From positions 16,356 through 80,355 of the forward strand of contig CAZLFP010000002.1 in NCBI GenBank assembly GCA_964558935.1: a stretch of DNA of 64,000 nt. Direction: 5' to 3'. The translations under genes were made by a program, and so were the position numbers. This stretch comes from an uncultured Gammaproteobacteria bacterium (GTDB taxonomy: Bacteria; Patescibacteriota; Patescibacteriia; 2-01-FULL-39-33). The notes beneath the pieces were generated by a model. That model made no database searches and was not told the origin of the DNA. It was given only the letters and a program-made list of their open reading frames with translations. This document shows, piece by piece, positions 1,586 to 55,455 of the stretch (position 1 is the first letter of the stretch; every line of letters begins with the position of its first letter).

Positions 1586-2905
1586 ATGATATTCCCTTGG
1601 TTAAGACAAAAAAGGATCTTCCAGCATCACAGACTGATTATTATGTCTGGGTTGGGGGTTCTTTTTTGTTTATTATTGGCTTATTCCATTTACCAACAAT
1701 ATTACAAAGATACCCTCTTAGGGTATATACCGGAATCATCTAAAATCTACCTGCATCTTAATCGTCCGACTTTTAAGACCAGACTCTCATTAGATAATCT
1801 GATTTTCAAGCTTTTTAATTCTTTTGATATACGGGATTTTAAGCCGGCCTGGATTAAAAGAGAAATGGCGGTGATGGAAAAAGACAATCAGTTTTATCTG
1901 GTTGTTCGAACACATAGTCAGCAACTGGTTAAGCGATTTCTGCAAGAAAATGATGTTAACCATGGCTGGTTGGACGGCAGTCGAGTTGTAATTGGAGAAT
2001 TTCCACCGGATTTTCATTTTGACAAGCATAAAATTATCGTTAAACAGCTTAACCGAAGCTTTAGATGGCCTTCAGATCTGAAACTGTATATGAATACTGG
2101 TTTAATTAACGAGTCTCAGGCATTAGATTACCAGATGATCAAACAGATGTTATTCAACACGTCCGGACATCTCTATTTGTCAGGTCGTTTTAAGCAAGAT
2201 AAGCTGCTCGTTAGTATCAACGACACAAAAGCCCATGATTTTGATTTACCGGAGATGTTTGAGGCGTATGATTTTAATCTGTACAGTCATCGTGCCGAAT
2301 ACCTCGATCCTTTTCTAAATCAGATTTTAGCTGTTTCACAGGATGAATACGCCGTAATCCAAGATTATTTGACCGGCTGGCAAACAGATTTTAAATTGGA
2401 TTTGACAAGTTCCCTGTATAAGAAATTAACTCAATCCAAAGTGTTGGTTTTAGTGCAGCAGGCTACCAGTACCGATGATTATCTAACAGATTACCGCTTT
2501 CATGTGAACTTTGAATTGCCCCAGGCTTTGGATTTCGAACAGATTGCACAAATGGAAGAAATCTTAAAAAACATTCTGGCTCAAAAGTATCCAACGCCAG
2601 TCAAGCAATCTTTAACAGATGGCACAATAATAACCGAGTTGTTGCCGGTTACTGACGAATACACTTTTGTCTCACAAAATGGATTTGAAACATTAATTGT
2701 TCAAGATCAGCTACTGGCGTATCAAGTGAGAGACAACCACCTAGCCATCACCAACAGCCGTGATTTAATGGCTAATTACAACGTAGCTGTAGCAAAAGAC
2801 TATTTAAGTCTTAAGACTCAACTCTTACCACAGACCGAGGTACTGGATTGGTTAAAAGCTTTTGAAACAATAGCTTTAGAAAATAATTCTCTGGTGTTGG
2901 AATAA
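1586..2905 (+). CDS. Hypothetical protein with N-terminal transmembrane anchor
   Basis: 439-aa ORF with an N-terminal hydrophobic helix. No recognisable motifs. Confidence 0.5.
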   Translation: MIFPWLRQKRIFQHHRLIIMSGLGVLFCLLLAYSIYQQYYKDTLLGYIPESSKIYLHLNRPTFKTRLSLDNLIFKLFNSFDIRDFKPAWIKREMAVMEKDNQFYLVVRTHSQQLVKRFLQENDVNHGWLDGSRVVIGEFPPDFHFDKHKIIVKQLNRSFRWPSDLKLYMNTGLINESQALDYQMIKQMLFNTSGHLYLSGRFKQDKLLVSINDTKAHDFDLPEMFEAYDFNLYSHRAEYLDPFLNQILAVSQDEYAVIQDYLTGWQTDFKLDLTSSLYKKLTQSKVLVLVQQATSTDDYLTDYRFHVNFELPQALDFEQIAQMEEILKNILAQKYPTPVKQSLTDGTIITELLPVTDEYTFVSQNGFETLIVQDQLLAYQVRDNHLAITNSRDLMANYNVAVAKDYLSLKTQLLPQTEVLDWLKAFETIALENNSLVLE

Positions 2906-3798: not shown

Positions 3799-4160
3799 GT
3801 TAGTTGAAATTGTACCTTAGTAATTAATATTTGGAGAAAATTGCGATTAAACCGCGTATTAATCTCAGTTTTCTGTTTTCTACTAGGTTAACACGAAATC
3901 CGGAGGGACCGTGAGCTAACCTCCCAACCCATGCAACTGGTGCGGTCATAGGCTGACCCCAACAGAGAGAGGTACTCCTGTGGCCACAACCAAGGTAGAA
4001 AACTGGCTTCAGCTCAAGAAGCGCTTATACACCCCCTACGATAGTCATTTCTGCCGCTGATCCTCGTGGATTAGTCCAGAACAGTCCTAGGGCCGTAGGC
4101 GCAAGCACCCATACATTAATTATACATATAATAGGGGCGCAGCTTGCGCCTCTTTTTTTT
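3799..4160 (+). ncRNA. Candidate structured non-coding RNA or long leader of about 360 nt; identity unresolved
   Basis: No protein ORF on the + strand between the promoter and the terminator. The GC-rich core 3895-4130 contains a local hairpin (GGAGGG...CCTCCC). It ends with a GC stem plus a T8 run. I could not find tmRNA (tRNA-like end), SRP RNA or RNase P RNA (P4/CR-IV) hallmark motifs. Confidence 0.4.
4134..4160 (+). terminator. Rho-independent terminator
   Basis: GGGGCGCAGCTTGCGCCTC stem-loop followed by TTTTTTTT. Confidence 0.7.
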
Positions 4161-4207: not shown

Positions 4208-4555
4208 ATGGATCAAACCACTCTTCAAGAACTCAAACAAATGCTGGAACAGAGAAAGCAAGAATTAATTAAACAGTTGGAAACGGTTGGTCATAAGGCA
4301 GAGGGAGAAGATAACTATGATGCCAATTTTCCTCAATATGGGGATTCAGCTGAAGACAATGCCATTGAAGTGGCGGATTATGCCACTAATTTGTCTTTGG
4401 AAAGAGAATTGGAACCGGAATTGAAAGATATTGACAAAGCTTTGGAAAGGATTAAAGAAGGCACCTATGGTAAATGCGAGAAGTGTGGCCAGGATATTGA
4501 TTTGGCCAGACTAAAAGTTATGCCATCTGCAACTGAATGTGTTAAGTGTAAATAA
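4208..4555 (+). CDS. DksA/TraR-family C4 zinc-finger protein
   Basis: C-terminal CEKCG-x17-CVKC motif. Size 115 aa. An extended -10 (TGGTATAAT at 4171-4179) lies upstream. Confidence 0.7.
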   Translation: MDQTTLQELKQMLEQRKQELIKQLETVGHKAEGEDNYDANFPQYGDSAEDNAIEVADYATNLSLERELEPELKDIDKALERIKEGTYGKCEKCGQDIDLARLKVMPSATECVKCK

Positions 4556-36209: not shown

Positions 36210-36620
36210 TAGCTGAATTATTAATCGGGTGGAGATGAGGAGTAATGAACTCCTGTCTGGCAATAAGCGAAGTAAATCAGTTGACAAGTTTTTGCTCTTT
36301 GAATGTTTTAAGCTACAACCTAACTAAAGAGCGAGATAGTCATAGCCGAAGTCTGTAAGTTTAAATAACTTACCCAGACTAAGCAAGTTACCGAGCCTAA
36401 GAATATGACACCGCTACCAACCATATAGGCCTAAGCTGGGCGATGGCTGTCAGCTTATTTAAGCAACAGCTGGTGCCAAAGCTAAACCGCTAAAAGCAGT
36501 TTTGACTCTAGCTAATAAGTTTTTTGCACTTATCTGGTGATGGTTTTTGACCTGGTTGCCAACAAACCGGACTTGCTGATTTACCTGTTATTCCCATCGA
36601 ATCATAACATCCCCAAGATA
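36210..36620 (-). promoter_or_regulatory. Long (about 400-nt), moderately GC-rich 5' UTR of the infC-rpmI-rplT operon; candidate L20-leader-type autoregulatory RNA
   Basis: No ORF in the segment. Position equivalent to the L20 leader of Firmicutes. Not verified by motif. Confidence 0.25.
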
Positions 36621-47887: not shown

Positions 47888-50074
47888 TTATTGACACTCC
47901 CGATTACTACACTTAGATCCGTTTTTCGTTTCAGTCATGGGATAACCGCATTTATCACACTTATCTCCGGTTGGTTTACCCCAAAAAGCAAAGTCACAAT
48001 TTGGGTACTGGTCACAGCCGTAAAATATTCCTTTGCGACTTCTCTTGGTTGCAATTTTACCCTTGCCGCACTTCGGACAATCCAGGTTCAAATCCTGAGC
48101 TTGTTCTTTTTTAATGTATTTGCATTTGGGATAATTGGAACAGCCCACAAAAGCTCCATATCTGCCATGTCTTTCAACCAAGTCAGATCCACAGTCAGGA
48201 CACTTCTCATCTATTTTTTTAGGTGGTTCTTTTTCTCCGTTATCTCCAATGTTAATGGTATTCTTGCAGTCCGGATAATTGGAACAAGCCAGGAACTTGC
48301 CAAACCTGCCCATTTTAATTACCATCTCAGCTCCGCATTTATCACACTTTTCATCTGTTTTTTCTTCAGTTAAGTCTTTCTTATTTAATTCTTGGTCTTT
48401 GGTCATAAGATTTTTGTTAAAAGGTGTATAAAAGTCTTTGATGACGGGTTGCCACTTTCTTGTGCCTTCTTCAATCTTATCCAAGTCGTCTTCCATTTCA
48501 GCCGTGAAATCATAATCTACAATTTCCTTAAAGTGATCTACCAACAGATCATTAACCACAAAGGCAATGTCTGTGGGAGCTAATCTTTTTTGGTCATTTC
48601 TTTCCACATAGTTTCTGGCAATGATGGTGGCAATGGTGGGAGCATAGGTTGAAGGCCGGCCAATGCCTTTTTCTTCCAGAGCTTTGACCAGGGTAGCATC
48701 GCTGTATCTGGCCGGAGGTTGAGTGAATTTTTGTTGCGGATCTATTTTTAATAAATCCAATTTATCTTGACTTTCCAAATCCGGCAAAATTTCTTCTTTG
48801 GTGGAAGCCGGATAAATCTTAAGGAAACCATCGAATTTAATAATCTGACCGGTCATCTTAAATATGTATCGCTGTTTGTCATCCGTAATTTCCAACGAGC
48901 TGTTTTCCAATTCAGCCGGAGCCATTTGACAAGCAATCGCTCTTTGCCAGATTAATTGGTAGAGTTTAAATTGTCTGGGATCTAATTTAGATTCAATTTC
49001 TTGAGGTGTTCTTAAAGCAGAAGTTGGTCTAATCGCTTCATGCGCTTCTTGCGCACCTTTGGATTTGGCTTTATATACCTGAGCTTTATAGTATTTGTCG
49101 CCCAATTTATTATTTATGAAATCCTTGGCTTCATTTAGGAATTTGGCAGACAAATTCAAAGAGTCTGTTCTCATGTAGGTGATTAATCCAACAGAGTCTC
49201 CGTCTAATTCCACTCCCTCATATAACCGTTGGGCCAGCATCATGGTCTGTTTGGCGGAAAAACCCAATCTGCGGTTAGCTTCTTGTTGCAAAGTGGAAGT
49301 GGTGAAAGGCGGTAGCGGTTTTTTGGTGGTTTGTCTCTTGGTAATCTCTCCAACTTGGTATTGTTGCTTTTCAATATCTTTGACTAATTTGGTTGCTGCT
49401 TTTTCAGAACCGATGGCCAGTTTATCTAAAGTCTTGCCGTCTACTTTTCTCAGCTGAGCAGTAAATGGCTCAGACGTGTCATGTTTGAAATCCCCAAATA
49501 TTTCCCAGTATTCATCGCTTTTAAAAGCTTGAATTTCTCGTTCTTTTTCAACAATCAGTCTCACCGCAACTGACTGCACTCGACCGGCTGACAGGCCTCG
49601 GGCAATTTTTTTCCATAACAAAGGAGACAGTTTGTAGCCAACCAATCTGTCTAACACCCGTCTGGCTTGTTGTGAATCCACCACAGCCATGTTGATGTGG
49701 CGAGGATTGTCCAAAGCTTCCTTAATGGCTTCTTCGGTAATTTCATGAAAAGTGATTCTTTTGGTTTGGTCAACCGGTACTTTCAAGATATGCGCCAGAT
49801 GCCAAGCAATGGCTTCCCCTTCACGATCTTCATCAGTCGCGAAGTAGATGTCATCCGCCTTTTTAGCCAACTCTTTCAATTTGGCAACTTGTTTTTTGGA
49901 TTTGGCCGGAACGGTATAGCTGGGTTCAAAATTATTGTCGATATCCACTCCCAATTTGGATTTCGGCAAATCTCGGATATGGCCAAACGAGGATTCTACT
50001 TTGTAATCCCGGCCTAAAAATTTGGAAATAGTTTTTGCTTTGGTGGGAGACTCAACAATAACTAATTTAGACAT
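47888..50074 (-). CDS. topA: DNA topoisomerase I with C-terminal zinc ribbons
   Basis: Toprim N-terminus LVIVESPTKAKTI. Catalytic Tyr region. Multiple C4 zinc ribbons at the C-terminus. Confidence 0.92.
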   Translation of the reverse strand: MSKLVIVESPTKAKTISKFLGRDYKVESSFGHIRDLPKSKLGVDIDNNFEPSYTVPAKSKKQVAKLKELAKKADDIYFATDEDREGEAIAWHLAHILKVPVDQTKRITFHEITEEAIKEALDNPRHINMAVVDSQQARRVLDRLVGYKLSPLLWKKIARGLSAGRVQSVAVRLIVEKEREIQAFKSDEYWEIFGDFKHDTSEPFTAQLRKVDGKTLDKLAIGSEKAATKLVKDIEKQQYQVGEITKRQTTKKPLPPFTTSTLQQEANRRLGFSAKQTMMLAQRLYEGVELDGDSVGLITYMRTDSLNLSAKFLNEAKDFINNKLGDKYYKAQVYKAKSKGAQEAHEAIRPTSALRTPQEIESKLDPRQFKLYQLIWQRAIACQMAPAELENSSLEITDDKQRYIFKMTGQIIKFDGFLKIYPASTKEEILPDLESQDKLDLLKIDPQQKFTQPPARYSDATLVKALEEKGIGRPSTYAPTIATIIARNYVERNDQKRLAPTDIAFVVNDLLVDHFKEIVDYDFTAEMEDDLDKIEEGTRKWQPVIKDFYTPFNKNLMTKDQELNKKDLTEEKTDEKCDKCGAEMVIKMGRFGKFLACSNYPDCKNTINIGDNGEKEPPKKIDEKCPDCGSDLVERHGRYGAFVGCSNYPKCKYIKKEQAQDLNLDCPKCGKGKIATKRSRKGIFYGCDQYPNCDFAFWGKPTGDKCDKCGYPMTETKNGSKCSNRECQ

Positions 50075-50082
50075 ATACAACT

Positions 50083-51024
50083 TTATAGTTTAAAGACATT
50101 AGTTTTAATATTACAGGATTTGGCTGGTTTGTCAATGTTGGATTGTAAATTGAGTGTTTCCAGCACATCTTTTGGGTTTAATATCAGCTTGGCTCCCAAC
50201 TGGATTAAGCGGTTGGTACCTTGGTTTTGAGGATTAAAAATATTAGCCGGAATAGCCATAACTTCTCGGTTTTGTTCCAGGGCTTGGTAAGCCGTGATCA
50301 AAGAACCGGAACGCTCCGGAGCCTCAATGACCAGAGTGCCCAGGGCTAAACCGGAAATGACGCAATTTCTAATTGGAAAGGTGTAGATGCTGGCCGGTGT
50401 GAATAATGGAAATTGGGAGAGAACACAGCCTTGAGTCGCTAATATATGTTGCAGATAAGGTCGCTTGTTTTGACTGATTAAATCCGTACCTAAGACAGCC
50501 ACGGTCGGCTGATGATTCTGCCAACAGACCTGATGCGCGATAGTGTCAATGCCTTGGGCTAAACCGGATACAATGGTGATGTGATGTAAGCATAAGTCTT
50601 GAGTTATCTTGTGGGTGACTGACTGAGCATAACCTGATGGCTGGCGAGTGCCAACCACTGCCAAGGTTGGTTGTTGTAAACACTTTAAGTTGCCTTGGTA
50701 ATACAAGATCCAAGGCGGGTTTTTAATCTGCTTCAACAAGTAGGGATAATCTTGATCCAACCAGCTGGTAACTTGAATTCGGTAATGCTTCAGTTTAGCC
50801 AATTCTTGGTCCGGATCAATTCTCTTCTTGAGTCCTGCTAAAGTTTGAGCCAGCTCCGGCTTAAAGCCGGCTTTTAACCAGTCTGGATAACTGGCCTGCC
50901 AAGCGGCTTCCATGTCTCGCTGAAAGTGGCTTAAGATTCTTTGGAAGCGCAGGAAGGATATTTTACGACTGACTGAGAAGGCTATTAAATACTTAAGATT
51001 GGTGGTATTTTGACAGCTTGACAT
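50083..51024 (-). CDS. dprA: DNA processing protein DprA/Smf
   Basis: LAVVGTRQPSGYA ... GLAQGIDTIAHQ Rossmann-like DprA core. Adjacent to topA as in many Firmicutes. Confidence 0.85.
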   Translation of the reverse strand: MSSCQNTTNLKYLIAFSVSRKISFLRFQRILSHFQRDMEAAWQASYPDWLKAGFKPELAQTLAGLKKRIDPDQELAKLKHYRIQVTSWLDQDYPYLLKQIKNPPWILYYQGNLKCLQQPTLAVVGTRQPSGYAQSVTHKITQDLCLHHITIVSGLAQGIDTIAHQVCWQNHQPTVAVLGTDLISQNKRPYLQHILATQGCVLSQFPLFTPASIYTFPIRNCVISGLALGTLVIEAPERSGSLITAYQALEQNREVMAIPANIFNPQNQGTNRLIQLGAKLILNPKDVLETLNLQSNIDKPAKSCNIKTNVFKL

Positions 51025-51049
51025 ATGTGACTTGACTTTTTAGGTAAAG

Positions 51050-51507
51050 GGTGTTAAACTTAGCTATTGAGAGCACTTTACAGGCAGATTTCTGTCTGTT
51101 AGTTGGTGGATTTGGCTGCCCCCCTCCTGCAGTCAAACTACCGTGAATTATGGCCCCATCTTTTTGGATGGAGTCATATACTAACAGGCAGTGATCTGCT
51201 TGTCAGTGCCAGATCTTGGAGAGGATGAGTCGACCAGGAAACTCAATTCCTCCTTTAGTTACCAACAACGGTCACTCTTGGTCCTCATCCTCTCCAACCT
51301 CAATAGTTTCTTCTATGGGGCAGCTACGTAGTGCTAAATAGCTCGTAGGCGCCTAAGGGCTTTTTTAGCTTACCTGTCCCACCAATTTACTGCCGGGAGT
51401 AGAGCAGAACAACAGTGCGCAACCAGATGCATTGCACACCATCCATCCAGAGATGCTCTACTCCCGACCAGACAATACAACGGTTACTTGCGCAAGTAAC
51501 CGTTTTT
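51050..51507 (+). ncRNA. Candidate highly structured non-coding RNA (about 450 nt), antisense to the flanking minus-strand genes; identity unresolved
   Basis: No ORF of 60 aa or more in dprA/pth orientation. Two perfect 12-bp long-range inverted repeats (GGAGAGGATGAG ... CTCATCCTCTCC and GGGAGTAGAGCA ... TGCTCTACTCCC). Terminal + strand terminator. Possible promoter TTGACT-16-TTAAAC at 51036-51063. Confidence 0.35.
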
Positions 51508-51510
51508 TTA
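51482..51510 (+). terminator. Rho-independent terminator (plus-strand)
   Basis: GGTTACTTGCGCAAGTAACC palindrome followed by TTTTTTT. Confidence 0.7.
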
Positions 51511-51517
51511 TTATCTT

Positions 51518-52084
51518 TCAATTATGCAAGTTCATGGCTTCAGGTAATGATTTTGTCAGCAGGTCCTGTACAGCCAGTGATGTTTTGCCCAGGACCGCTC
51601 TTAGTTTTATACCATGTAAGAGATGAATATTTTCTAAAACGTAATCGGCAGTATCCACACGTGCCAATTTTGGTGTTTTAACACCAATTCTAAGTCTGAC
51701 AAAATCTTGAGAACCCAGGGCATGAATAATGGATTTGACACCATTATGACCTCCAGCTGATGAGTTACGGCTGATTCTAATCTGACCAAAGTTTAAATCT
51801 ATATCGTCATGAATAATAATTATATCTGTTAGTTGAGCATGGTAATACTGAGTCACCAGTTGTACGGCCTGTCCCGAATTGTTCATGTAAGTCAGGGGTT
51901 TTGCCAGGATGACTTTTTGTTGTTGCCAATGACCTTCGGTTAGACTGGCTTGCAGTTTGGATTGGTCTTTGAAATTATTTAAATCCAAGTCCTGTTTTAA
52001 TGTGTCTAAAGCCAGAAAACCCAAATTGTGCCAATTTTTACGGTATTGAGGACCGGGATTGCCCAGGCCAATGATGATTTTCAT
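51518..52084 (-). CDS. pth: Peptidyl-tRNA hydrolase
   Basis: MKIIIGLGNPGPQYRKNWHNLGF. The ORF-track N-terminal extension was trimmed. Confidence 0.88.
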   Translation of the reverse strand: MKIIIGLGNPGPQYRKNWHNLGFLALDTLKQDLDLNNFKDQSKLQASLTEGHWQQQKVILAKPLTYMNNSGQAVQLVTQYYHAQLTDIIIIHDDIDLNFGQIRISRNSSAGGHNGVKSIIHALGSQDFVRLRIGVKTPKLARVDTADYVLENIHLLHGIKLRAVLGKTSLAVQDLLTKSLPEAMNLHN

Positions 52085-52085
52085 A

Positions 52086-53447
52086 CTATTTCTTTTTTGT
52101 ACTCCATTTTTTAACTTCCATTTGAAGGGGAGTGCCAATGATGTTGAATTTTTTTCTTAAGTTGTTTTGAATAAATCTGATGTAAGAGAAATGTAAGATT
52201 GCAGGATCATTTACGTAAATGATAAAGCGAGGCGGATTGGTTTTAACCTGCTCGATGGCGTAGATATACGGGTTCTTCAAGCCCTTGCCTCGAGATGGTC
52301 TGTGTTTCTTAATGTTAGATTTTAAGAATAACTCAAGTTGCTTCTTAGTCAGCTTAATCTTTTTAGCCTGATTAATGTCTAAAATCAGGTCTAAGATTTT
52401 TTTAGTTCTTTGGTTTTCTAAGGCTGAGGTGAAGATGATGGGAGCCCACCACAGGTAAGGAAAATGCTTTTGGTAGTAGTCTATGTATTCTTGAATGGTA
52501 TTGGTTTCTTTGTCAGGAATTAAATCCCATTTATTGGCTACAATCACCAAAGGTTTGGAAGCTTCTAAGATAGCTTGAGTTATCTTTTTATCTTGAGCAT
52601 CGATTTTTTTTTGAGCTTCGGTGACAAACATGACAATGTCCGCGTCTTCAATGGCAGATAAAGATTTCAGGATGGATTTTTTTTCCAAGGTTTCATTATT
52701 AATCTTGCTTTTTCTTCTAATGCCGGCTGTATCAATTAAAACAAAATTCTGATCCTGGTATTCAAATTCAATGTCATGGGCTTCACGGGTCGTGTGCGCA
52801 ATGTCGGTGACAATCACTCGTTCTTCGCCCAAAATGGAGTTTAACAAAGAAGATTTACCGACATTGGGTTTGCCGACAATAGCGATTTTAATCTGTTCTT
52901 TTTGGTCGGCTTTTTTAATTCGAGTATCTTTTTTCGGCAAGCGACTGAAAATGATGTCCAACAGATCTCCACAACCGGAACCGTTGACAGCTGAGATCAT
53001 AATGGGTTCATCCAGGCCCAGTTTGTAGACCTCGGAATCTGCCTGGTGCCACCGAATTGAATCTGCTTTGTTGCCGATTAATAAAGTTCTATCTTTTAAT
53101 TTGCTCTTAATTAAATCCCTGGCCAGTTCTTTATCCTGAGGTAGAATGCCGACTTTGGCATCATAGACAAATAAGATTAAATCTGCTTCCGCAATCGCTT
53201 GCTTGGCTTGTTTTACAATATTGGCTTCAATTGGATTATCCTTTTTGTTATCTATATCCAAGCCACCAGTGTCGATTAAGATAAATTCCCGACCCTGCCA
53301 TTTAACCTTGTCGATGTTGCGGTCTCTAGTTGTACCGGCTATATCTGAAACCAGCGCTTTATTTTTTTCAATTAAGCGATTGAACAAGGTAGATTTGCCG
53401 ACATTGGCTCTTCCAATTATGGCAACTTGCGGTATAGTGGTTTTCAT
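52086..53447 (-). CDS. der: Ribosome-biogenesis GTPase Der (EngA), tandem G domains plus KH-like domain
   Basis: Two P-loops (GRANVGKST, GKPNVGKSS). 453 aa. Confidence 0.92.
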   Translation of the reverse strand: MKTTIPQVAIIGRANVGKSTLFNRLIEKNKALVSDIAGTTRDRNIDKVKWQGREFILIDTGGLDIDNKKDNPIEANIVKQAKQAIAEADLILFVYDAKVGILPQDKELARDLIKSKLKDRTLLIGNKADSIRWHQADSEVYKLGLDEPIMISAVNGSGCGDLLDIIFSRLPKKDTRIKKADQKEQIKIAIVGKPNVGKSSLLNSILGEERVIVTDIAHTTREAHDIEFEYQDQNFVLIDTAGIRRKSKINNETLEKKSILKSLSAIEDADIVMFVTEAQKKIDAQDKKITQAILEASKPLVIVANKWDLIPDKETNTIQEYIDYYQKHFPYLWWAPIIFTSALENQRTKKILDLILDINQAKKIKLTKKQLELFLKSNIKKHRPSRGKGLKNPYIYAIEQVKTNPPRFIIYVNDPAILHFSYIRFIQNNLRKKFNIIGTPLQMEVKKWSTKKK

Positions 53448-55294: not shown

Positions 55295-55366
55295 GGGGCT
55301 ATCGTCTAGTGGTTAGGACACCAGGTTTTCATCCTGGTAACCGGGGTTCGATTCCCCGTGGCCCTA
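55295..55366 (+). tRNA. tRNA-Glu (UUC)
   Basis: GGGGCTATCGTCTAGTGGTTAGGACACCAGGTTTTCATCCTGG ... GGTTCGATTCC ... TGGCCCTA. Anticodon TTC. Followed by the terminator ACAACCA aaca TGGTTGT TTTTTTT. Confidence 0.88.
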
Positions 55367-55379
55367 CTTGGATAAATAA

Positions 55380-55407
55380 AAAACAACCAAACATGGTTGT
55401 TTTTTTA
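55380..55407 (+). terminator. Rho-independent terminator after tRNA-Glu
   Basis: Stem ACAACCA/TGGTTGT plus T7. Confidence 0.7.
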
Positions 55408-55419
55408 TAGATCAGAAAA

Positions 55420-55455
55420 ACCTCATTTCACGTTTGAAATGAGGTTAAGTGCTTT
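55420..55455 (-). terminator. Candidate minus-strand terminator: perfect 12-bp stem AACCTCATTTCA/TGAAATGAGGTT
   Basis: On the minus strand it is followed by TTTTCTGATC. The stem abuts the stop of the 55455-55658 ORF. Confidence 0.45.

Follow-up and report, generated by a model that had tools for sequence, protein, structure and literature searches.

The gap between pth and dprA (51025-51517) in a 64,000-nucleotide (nt) stretch of contig CAZLFP010000002.1, which was analysed as a whole and is called the window below, raises the question of what a highly structured interval encodes in a region where all four flanking genes, der, pth, dprA and topA, lie on the minus strand. A preliminary description had proposed an independent structured non-coding RNA gene, antisense to these neighbours. 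This proposal is borne out by comparison, as promoter, orientation and terminator are conserved in homologous loci and the tRNAs that relatives carry in the gap are encoded on the same strand.

From the architecture and homology of the locus, it is very probable that the gap holds a modular stable-RNA operon, in which a leader RNA is followed by a variable cargo of tRNAs, tRNA-like genes and hairpin modules. In the window, the interval is probably a self-contained stable-RNA transcription unit of ~445 nt on the plus strand, extending from ~51067 to 51511. On balance, the observations are best explained jointly by a conserved stable-RNA operon, RNase P-type processing of its transcript, and C-rich motifs that resemble the 16S rRNA tail and act through this resemblance. 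By its nearest relatives, the operon is assigned to a subclade of the Parcubacteria group (Patescibacteria, or candidate phyla radiation, CPR). These organisms account for a large share of bacterial diversity, and to our knowledge almost nothing is known of their regulatory RNAs.

A structured, non-coding interval

The two long-range stems of the interval, previously reported as perfect helices of 12 base pairs (bp), are real, lie where they had been placed, and are longer than thought. Stem 1 has 14 perfect bp (51216-51229/51284-51297, with 54 nt between the arms) and stem 2 has 13 (51394-51406/51454-51466, with 47 nt between the arms). That two such stems are unlikely to arise by chance was confirmed by dinucleotide-preserving shuffling of 51030-51510, in which one perfect stem of at least 12 bp (loop of at most 100 nt) appeared in 2 of 1,000 shuffles and two appeared in none; every remaining perfect stem of 12 bp or more in the window encloses a short, terminator-like loop. 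In addition, the minimum free energy (MFE) of the plus strand is -193.9 kcal/mol, compared with -122 +/- 6.9 for its shuffles (z = -10.4), and the minus strand is likewise far from its shuffles (z = -9.0). Both long stems are retained through compensatory changes in L023, the homologous locus of the nearest relative, so the loss of stems in related genomes that had been envisaged as evidence to the contrary is not seen there.

The interval had been called free of open reading frames (ORFs), and those present in the gap indeed measure just 31-47 amino acids (aa), one of them beginning within the -10 box. Protein coding was considered and rejected: tblastn matches in the homologous gaps are confined to the best-conserved RNA segment and are spread alike over two plus-strand frames and the minus strand, and conservation therefore operates at the nucleotide rather than the protein level. 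An origin of the long inverted repeats from a repeat or miniature inverted-repeat transposable element (MITE) was also rejected, given that the window holds a single copy of the leader and that the stems are compensatorily maintained in a syntenic homologue. Of the ~450-nt element originally described, the structured and non-coding character stands, but not its unity, since the interval is a modular operon rather than one RNA and the long stems fall in separate modules, stem 1 in module c and stem 2 in module b.

Transcription signals frame this operon on both sides (Table 1). The promoter-like site noticed earlier on the plus strand is present in a slightly shifted register, as TTGACT-17-TAAACT with an upstream TG, and constitutes a putative sigma-70-type promoter, which is divergent from dprA and would direct transcription antisense to both flanking genes; the start would be at about 51066-51069. 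In each of the 12 lineages in which the RNA was found (the window, L001, L023, L031, L032, L034, L038, L039, L043, L046, L048 and L049), the gap, read antisense to its flanking genes, opens with a strong promoter sequence of the form TTGAC[A/T/G]-17-TGnTAnnnT. The plus-strand terminator was also recovered by sequence scan, as a putative hairpin at 51479-51504 followed by T7, and a homologous hairpin with a U-run is present in L023. A lenient scan flags this same 51479-51504 hairpin on the minus strand too, but its tail there is merely GTATTGTCTG.

Table 1. Positions of the RNA operon, its predicted parts and the flanking genes in the window
Feature	Position	Strand	Basis and details
topA	47888-50080	-	Pfam
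dprA	50083-51024	-	Pfam PF02481, E = 3e-68; divergent from RNA promoter
Putative promoter	51032-51060	+	Consensus scan; -35 TTGACT 51032-51037, extended -10 TG 51052-51053, TAAACT 51055-51060
Possible closing helix (uncertain)	51062-51071/51299-51308	+	MFE; 10 bp, would enclose leader and module c
Leader RNA domain	51080-51204	+	R1 model match; helix coordinates from MFE
Module c	51216-51297	+	Inverted repeat, MFE; long hairpin with 14-bp perfect stem and inner 8-bp helix
Module a	51317-51384	+	MFE; hairpin, 7-bp acceptor-like GGGGCAG/CUGUCCC 51317-51323/51374-51380, ACCA 51381-51384
Module b	51394-51470	+	Inverted repeat; 13-bp perfect stem, outer 7 bp CGGGAGU/ACUCCCG; ACCA 51467-51470
Putative intrinsic terminator	51479-51511	+	Scan; 11-bp hairpin 51479-51504, 4-nt loop, T7 tail
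pth	51518-52138	-	Pfam PF01195, E = 1e-56; convergent with RNA operon
der	52086-53447	-	Pfam

A leader RNA of a new family

The part of the operon shared by all lineages is the leader. In its MFE fold, a two-part outer stem of 23 bp (51080-51103/51180-51203) surrounds hairpin A (51105-51142), whose 9-nt loop, CCCCCUCCU, lies at 51120-51128, and, after the junction GUGAAU, hairpin B (51149-51178). Eleven distinct versions of this 5' segment, the window included and L049 left out, were aligned, and their consensus retains the long two-part outer stem around hairpin A, with hairpin B in 9 of the 11; the leader of L043 is devoid of hairpin B. Covariation in homologous loci, proposed earlier as a check, supports the fold. 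Among 45 predicted pairs, 24 change on both sides with the pair kept (11 sequences), and 94.3% of cells pair, a share that falls to 32-54% if the partners on the 3' side are displaced by 1-3 columns. Moreover, the observed pairing, compensatory counts and covariation score were not reached in any of 500 column shuffles. Covariation is free in the distal part of the outer stem, and sequence conservation marks the inner 12 bp and the loop of hairpin A; the CCCUCCU of this loop (51122-51128 in the window) is invariant in the 11 aligned sequences and also found in L049.

The covariance model R1 matches the window leader with 117.1 bits (E = 2e-31) on the plus strand and 28.7 bits on the minus strand, a score that is high by construction because the window is part of the seed. 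The independent match is that of L049, unseen by the model, with 24 bits (E = 7e-4). Exactly one copy occurs per related locus, the seed sequences scoring 56-121 bits in sense and 20-43 bits in antisense orientation, and neither a match in 20 unrelated loci (L003, a more distant genome, among them) nor a second copy in the window was detected. The many G:U pairs of the leader, which would be A-C mismatches on the other strand, fix the transcribed strand. In L048 and L049 the leader is the sole RNA of the gap, and it is therefore an independent gene, not a mere tRNA leader.

A search of the whole window with Rfam 15 at gathering scores gave no match in the interval, RNase P, transfer-messenger RNA (tmRNA), signal recognition particle (SRP) RNA, 6S RNA and riboswitches included, in line with the earlier remark that motifs of RNase P, tmRNA and SRP RNA could not be recognized. 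When the threshold was relaxed to E <= 10 on the interval, there were scattered chance matches of different families to different sub-segments, and five homologous loci yielded nothing besides tRNAs at E <= 1. A standard one-piece tmRNA is encoded elsewhere in the window (36227-36614, minus strand; RF00023, 102.6 bits, full length), and the pth/dprA element is thus not the tmRNA of this genome. Full-text searches of the literature found no description of an RNA in the pth/dprA gap. Judged by these searches and the alignment, the leader is a new RNA family, absent from Rfam, in a known genomic setting.

The loop of hairpin A was also considered as the complement of a Shine-Dalgarno (SD) sequence for a small minus-strand ORF; this idea was dropped, since on reading the minus strand by eye there is no start codon within reach of AGGAGGG.

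Variable cargo behind a constant leader

The cargo, defined as the RNAs 3' of the leader on the same strand, ranges from zero to seven tRNAs together with tRNA-like modules. It consists of tRNA-Gln in L023, tRNA-Cys in L032, tRNA-Cys and tRNA-Leu in L034, the same two with two odd tRNAs in L039, two tRNA-Asn and one tRNA-Ala in L038, tRNA-Phe with two tRNA-like genes in L046, seven tRNAs in L043, and two tRNA-like genes in L001; the window, L031, L048 and L049 have no tRNA. Their shared strand, the single upstream promoter and the single terminal terminator are consistent with co-transcription of leader and tRNAs in the relatives. Recurrent non-tRNA modules are interleaved with the tRNAs: tRNA-Gln sits between modules a and b in L023, tRNA-Cys sits between the leader and the rest in L032, L034, L039 and L043, and several lineages either lack modules c and a or have something else in their place. 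In the window gap, no tRNA cloverleaf was found by Rfam RF00005 (50950-51600, E <= 10) or by ARAGORN. The window unit would, as we are inclined to think, be a local tRNA-less version of the operon that relatives carry in the same gap.

Module c contains a second motif like the anti-SD sequence, UUCCUCCUUU, whose CCUCC (51249-51253) lies in a region predicted to be unpaired in the MFE fold; the counterparts of this module in L023, L032 and L043 likewise contain YCCUCCUU motifs. Compared with L023, 3 of 12 stem pairs of module c are changed on both sides and none is broken. Module a follows a recurrent design, namely AU, a 7-bp stem starting with G, an (A/G/U)CC(A/C) tail and a U-rich linker, which is found in the window, L023, L031, L032, L034 and L043; its closing stem covaries (1 of 7 pairs changed on both sides relative to L023, none broken), and its interior is structured and highly variable. 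A common origin of module a and the leader, suggested by a shared GGAUUUCUG start in L032 and L034, was examined and rejected, as R1 gives no second match in any locus.

Module b, which follows the U-rich linker after module a, has the invariant pairs C1:G72, G2:C71 and G3:C70, covarying pairs 4-7, and an ACCA tail. Relative to L023, 4 of 13 pairs are changed on both sides and none is broken. Taken together across six loci, the closing stems of modules a and b covary and their CCA-type tails are conserved, and in the window both modules combine a 7-bp stem, a discriminator and CCA in the manner of a tRNA acceptor end. Pairs 1-3 and the ACCA of module b recur in a tRNA-like gene that L032, L034, L039 and L043 carry at this position, and to which module b is, by this comparison, homologous. 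The homologue in L039 is a complete cloverleaf that ARAGORN calls a tRNA; that in L034 has a long anticodon arm and still reaches 38.1 bits in the Rfam tRNA model (gathering score 29); and that in L032 is made up of an acceptor stem and a T arm with one long hairpin. The window and L023 versions have lost the D and T arms and consist of an uninterrupted 13-bp helix that carries a 47-nt insert and is followed by ACCA. The T arm GGUGG UCCAAAU CCRCC, present in L032, L034, L039 and L043, was not found in module b of the window.

Normal acceptor and T arms are seen in the tRNA-like genes of L046 (3068-3733, minus strand), L034 (3238-3323, minus strand) and the L032 gap. In place of the anticodon arm, these genes have either a long hairpin whose loop is tiny or an insert of 22-29 nt, and decoding by them is unlikely. 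Among the ARAGORN calls in L001 and L039 are tRNAs with 2-nt 'anticodons'.

Genomic setting

The nearest relatives of DprA and Pth are 53-57% identical and, where named, belong to Candidatus Buchananbacteria, Falkowbacteria, Parcubacteria or the "Patescibacteria group". The order der (or another gene)-pth-gap-dprA-topA recurs in every relative fetched, with gaps of 237-1,359 nt. The locus is confined to a subclade, for in L003, a Patescibacteria genome at greater distance (Pth 43% identical), gap, tRNA and conserved segment are all missing.

Several of the related loci have peculiarities of their own. L001 (CAYGKC010000004.1) is titled 'uncultured Gammaproteobacteria bacterium', yet it carries a Parcubacteria-type der-pth-RNA-dprA-topA locus with a 91-bit leader match, and its taxonomic label is probably wrong. 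In L031, a gene for a 23S rRNA intervening-sequence protein (PF05635; 445-792, plus strand) lies directly upstream of pth and replaces der. Promoter and leader of L043 are bracketed by two copies, 80-85% identical, of an element of ~160 nt (3919-4078 and 4223-4382), whose ends are mutually inverted (TAGACCTACTGTAGAA...TTCTACAGTAGGTCT), giving it a MITE-like look. An 87-aa hydrophobic ORF with its own SD sequence, which may be real, stands 3' of the L049 leader on the same strand (2083-2346, minus strand).

In the window, the pth stop codon lies 7 nt past the T-run of the terminator. Read from a TTG start, the longest ORF of pth has 206 aa and shares 53 nt with der; the identical database Pth has 188 aa, and the true start is therefore probably near 52084. 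DprA of the window is short (313 aa), with PF02481 as its single domain. The C-terminal winged-helix domain PF17782 is present in most DprA relatives (~365 aa) and lost in the nearest ones (P0002 and P0003) and in P0054. Away from the gap, two perfect 12-bp short-loop hairpins stand in tandem (55378-55405 and 55419-55446, plus strand) just 3' of tRNA-Glu (55295-55367), and could be a double terminator or a repeated element.

Predicted maturation and possible roles

Bacterial RNase P depends on 3' RCCA for cleavage of non-tRNA substrates (PMC12710915), and it separates polycistronic tRNA transcripts (PMC2190699). By analogy, the tRNA-maturation machinery would cut the ~445-nt precursor, RNase P cleaving just before 51317 and 51394, on the 5' flank of each of modules a and b, under the guidance of their RCCA tails, and 3' trimming would produce CCA ends at 51384 and 51470. 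This would yield the leader, either alone or joined to module c, together with two hairpin RNAs of ~68 and ~77 nt that end in CCA. Our confidence in processing by this machinery is moderate.

Confidence in the molecular function of the RNAs is low. The CCCUCCU loop of the leader and the CCUCCUU of module c resemble the anti-SD 3' tail of 16S rRNA. CCUCC is unpaired in the MFE folds of the window, L023, L032 and L043, and about a third of the window genes have SDs of the GGAG type. It is conceivable that CCCCCUCCU and UUCCUCCUUU pair with G-rich SD regions of mRNAs and thereby damp translation initiation; alternatively, leader and module c might serve as a decoy for a factor that recognizes the 16S 3' end. 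Pairing with G-rich ribosome-binding sites, in the manner of RsaE/RoxS, is the most economical reading, and a doubtful one. Less likely still, though more far-reaching, would be a dedicated translation-control system of Parcubacteria, made up of an abundant 16S 3'-tail mimic and two tRNA-derived, CCA-tailed minihelix RNAs. In such a system, the two exposed CCUCC(U) motifs would titrate SD sequences or a 16S-tail-binding factor such as Era, and the minihelices would be charged or bound by tRNA-handling enzymes and act as off-ribosome amino-acid carriers or decoys.

Several points weigh against an operon that is processed and acts in this way. The sample consists of 12 lineages, and the start site, the processing sites and co-transcription are inferred. 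The metagenome pattern CCCTCCT-N16-18-AATTATG-N33-35-GGCAGT retrieved the L023 contig and four chance matches (L027-L030); since spacing and motifs differ in Buchananbacteria and Falkowbacteria, it is too strict and hence uninformative on abundance. In the viral collection, the motif used had 0 matches. Module a, so variable in its interior, may be a mere structural spacer, and because modules a and b are not recognized as tRNAs, their role as RNase P substrates is an extrapolation. Outside the leader and the tRNAs, the enrichment of CCUCC is modest, ~two-fold, with 11 occurrences compared with 5.5 +/- 2.4 and at least 11 in 6 of 200 shuffles. Finally, a duplex scan of 73 start regions in the window returned generic SD matches, such as CAGGAGGG upstream of two ORFs, and no outstanding or conserved target.

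Alternative explanations

The interval might act mainly in cis, strong antisense transcription insulating or throttling dprA-topA through interference or through pairing with the dprA 5' untranslated region or with read-through RNA. The sole invariant of the locus is that the leader adjoins the dprA start in divergent orientation, in 12 of 12 lineages; the -35 box of the RNA is 8 nt from the dprA start codon in the window, and in L049 the RNA promoter extends into the first codons of dprA. On the minus strand, the hairpin that follows pth would terminate poorly, which makes read-through across the gap plausible. In addition, the 3' outer stem of the leader harbours a minus-strand promoter-like site directed to dprA (51206-51178, CTGACA-17-TAGTAT with TG), and the conserved CATATACTAG of the leader corresponds to CTAGTATATG on the minus strand; part of the leader sequence conservation might thus serve dprA transcription. 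Interference, however, needs a promoter alone, and a covarying fold, an invariant loop and CCA-tailed modules are left unexplained by it. A mainly cis role is accordingly a serious rival, unlikely as the chief purpose of the locus and compatible with the stable-RNA operon.

Rather improbable is a single, integrally folded RNA of ~450 nt, ribozyme-like or 'ornate' in the manner of RNase P, OLE, GOLLD or ROOL. The interval as a whole does fold far better than its shuffles, by the z of -10.4 given above, the tRNA adjacency in relatives is as often seen for GOLLD and ROOL, and the leader could be joined with module c into one domain by a 10-bp helix, of which ~6 bp with one compensatory change are retained in L023 (sequence read by eye). 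Yet this helix is weakly conserved, and it is doubtful in that its 5' strand, starting 2 nt past the -10 box, lies partly ahead of the likely start site, so that part of it may escape transcription. The locus, moreover, has a modular build: relatives carry tRNA genes between its modules, the leader stands alone in L048 and L049, and modules c and a can be missing or exchanged. No Rfam match to a large RNA, GOLLD, ROOL, OLE, HEARO and raiA included, was obtained down to E <= 10 on the interval.

Slightly less credible again is a leader that works as a cis-acting attenuator or riboswitch and governs read-through into downstream tRNAs. Such a role would suit its position, always promoter-proximal and upstream of the cargo, and the U-rich tract after the outer stem in L001, L032, L034 and L039, but such a tract is lacking in the window and L023, downstream targets of regulation are missing altogether in L048 and L049, and the window and L031 have no tRNA. 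An alternative, anti-terminating fold is not evident, and riboswitch models gave no match to the interval or to the five homologous loci searched.

The poorest account is that of a decaying tRNA-operon remnant with functionless tRNA pseudogenes as hairpins, for although the window locus has no canonical tRNA where most relatives have one to seven, and the D and T arms are gone from module b of the window and L023, the promoter and the terminator remain intact, the 14-bp and 13-bp stems show 3 and 4 compensatory pairs and no mismatch against L023, whose neighbour proteins are 57% identical, the leader is ~88% identical to that of L023 (our own count from the alignment), and a reduced CPR genome is not expected to retain 450 nt of dead sequence.

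Implications for CPR biology

The stable-RNA operon provides a covariation-supported family, absent from Rfam 15, that occupies one syntenic position among lineages whose neighbour proteins are ~50% identical. Three of its traits are unusual: an invariant loop that copies the anti-SD sequence, a graded series that begins with true tRNAs, passes through tRNA-like genes whose anticodon arms are aberrant and arrives at bare minihelices with CCA tails, and versions of a "tRNA operon" without any tRNA. If expressed and processed as predicted, these RNAs would offer a testable entry into translation control and tRNA-gene evolution in organisms not yet grown alone, and, if the translation-control reading were true, they would represent a new means by which ultra-small symbionts tune or protect their translation apparatus. 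A family model would also improve annotation, as gene callers place spurious ORFs on the RNA; an 82-aa ORF called across module b and tRNA-Gln in L023 (611-859, minus strand) is almost certainly of this kind.

Comparison with known RNA systems

GOLLD and ROOL RNAs are often found next to tRNA genes. They share with the pth/dprA RNA a highly structured, non-coding nature and frequent tRNA adjacency, and they differ from it in that the pth/dprA locus is modular, chromosomal, syntenic and much smaller per module.

Closer to modules a and b in their ends are tmRNA and 4.5S RNA, non-tRNA stable RNAs that are processed by RNase P and have acceptor-like termini (PMC3985003). Like them, the modules have a 5' end starting with G, a 7-bp terminal helix and a 3' (A/G)CCA; unlike them, they match no tmRNA or SRP model, and their interiors are unconserved. 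Pseudo-tRNAs and non-canonical tRNAs, such as tRNA-Other of Bacillus cereus (PMC3399842; reviewed in PMC7609411), resemble module b and the tRNA-like genes of L032, L034 and L046 in keeping the acceptor end and CCA where decoding is unlikely. In contrast to these, module b of the window and L023 is devoid of D and T arms, and module b is always part of the leader operon.

As for the C-rich motifs, the small RNAs RsaE/RoxS of Gram-positive bacteria use such sequences to pair with G-rich ribosome-binding regions of target mRNAs (PMC6158497, PMC5419742). Several C-rich motifs in unpaired regions of a stable hairpin RNA are found, by predicted fold, in the window as well. The leader fold, however, with its long outer stem and two- or three-way junction, is different, the motifs here are the longer, 16S-tail-like CCCUCCU and CCUCCUU in place of the UCCC/CCCC of RsaE/RoxS, and neither the interval nor the five homologous loci searched match RsaE in Rfam.

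A 3' external transcribed spacer of the E. coli glyW-cysT-leuZ transcript reportedly acts as a small-RNA sponge (Lalaouna et al. 2015). Regulatory RNAs embedded in tRNA operons have been reviewed as a class (PMC8383071), and the pth/dprA operon is like them in that a non-tRNA segment shares a promoter with tRNA genes and, as proposed here, would be released by tRNA-processing enzymes and then act in trans by base pairing. It is set apart from them, with which it has no sequence or Rfam relationship, by a non-tRNA part that lies at the 5' end and forms a covarying fold of ~125 nt with an invariant loop, that is conserved across lineages whose neighbour proteins are ~50% identical, and that persists in L048, L049 and the window without any tRNA.

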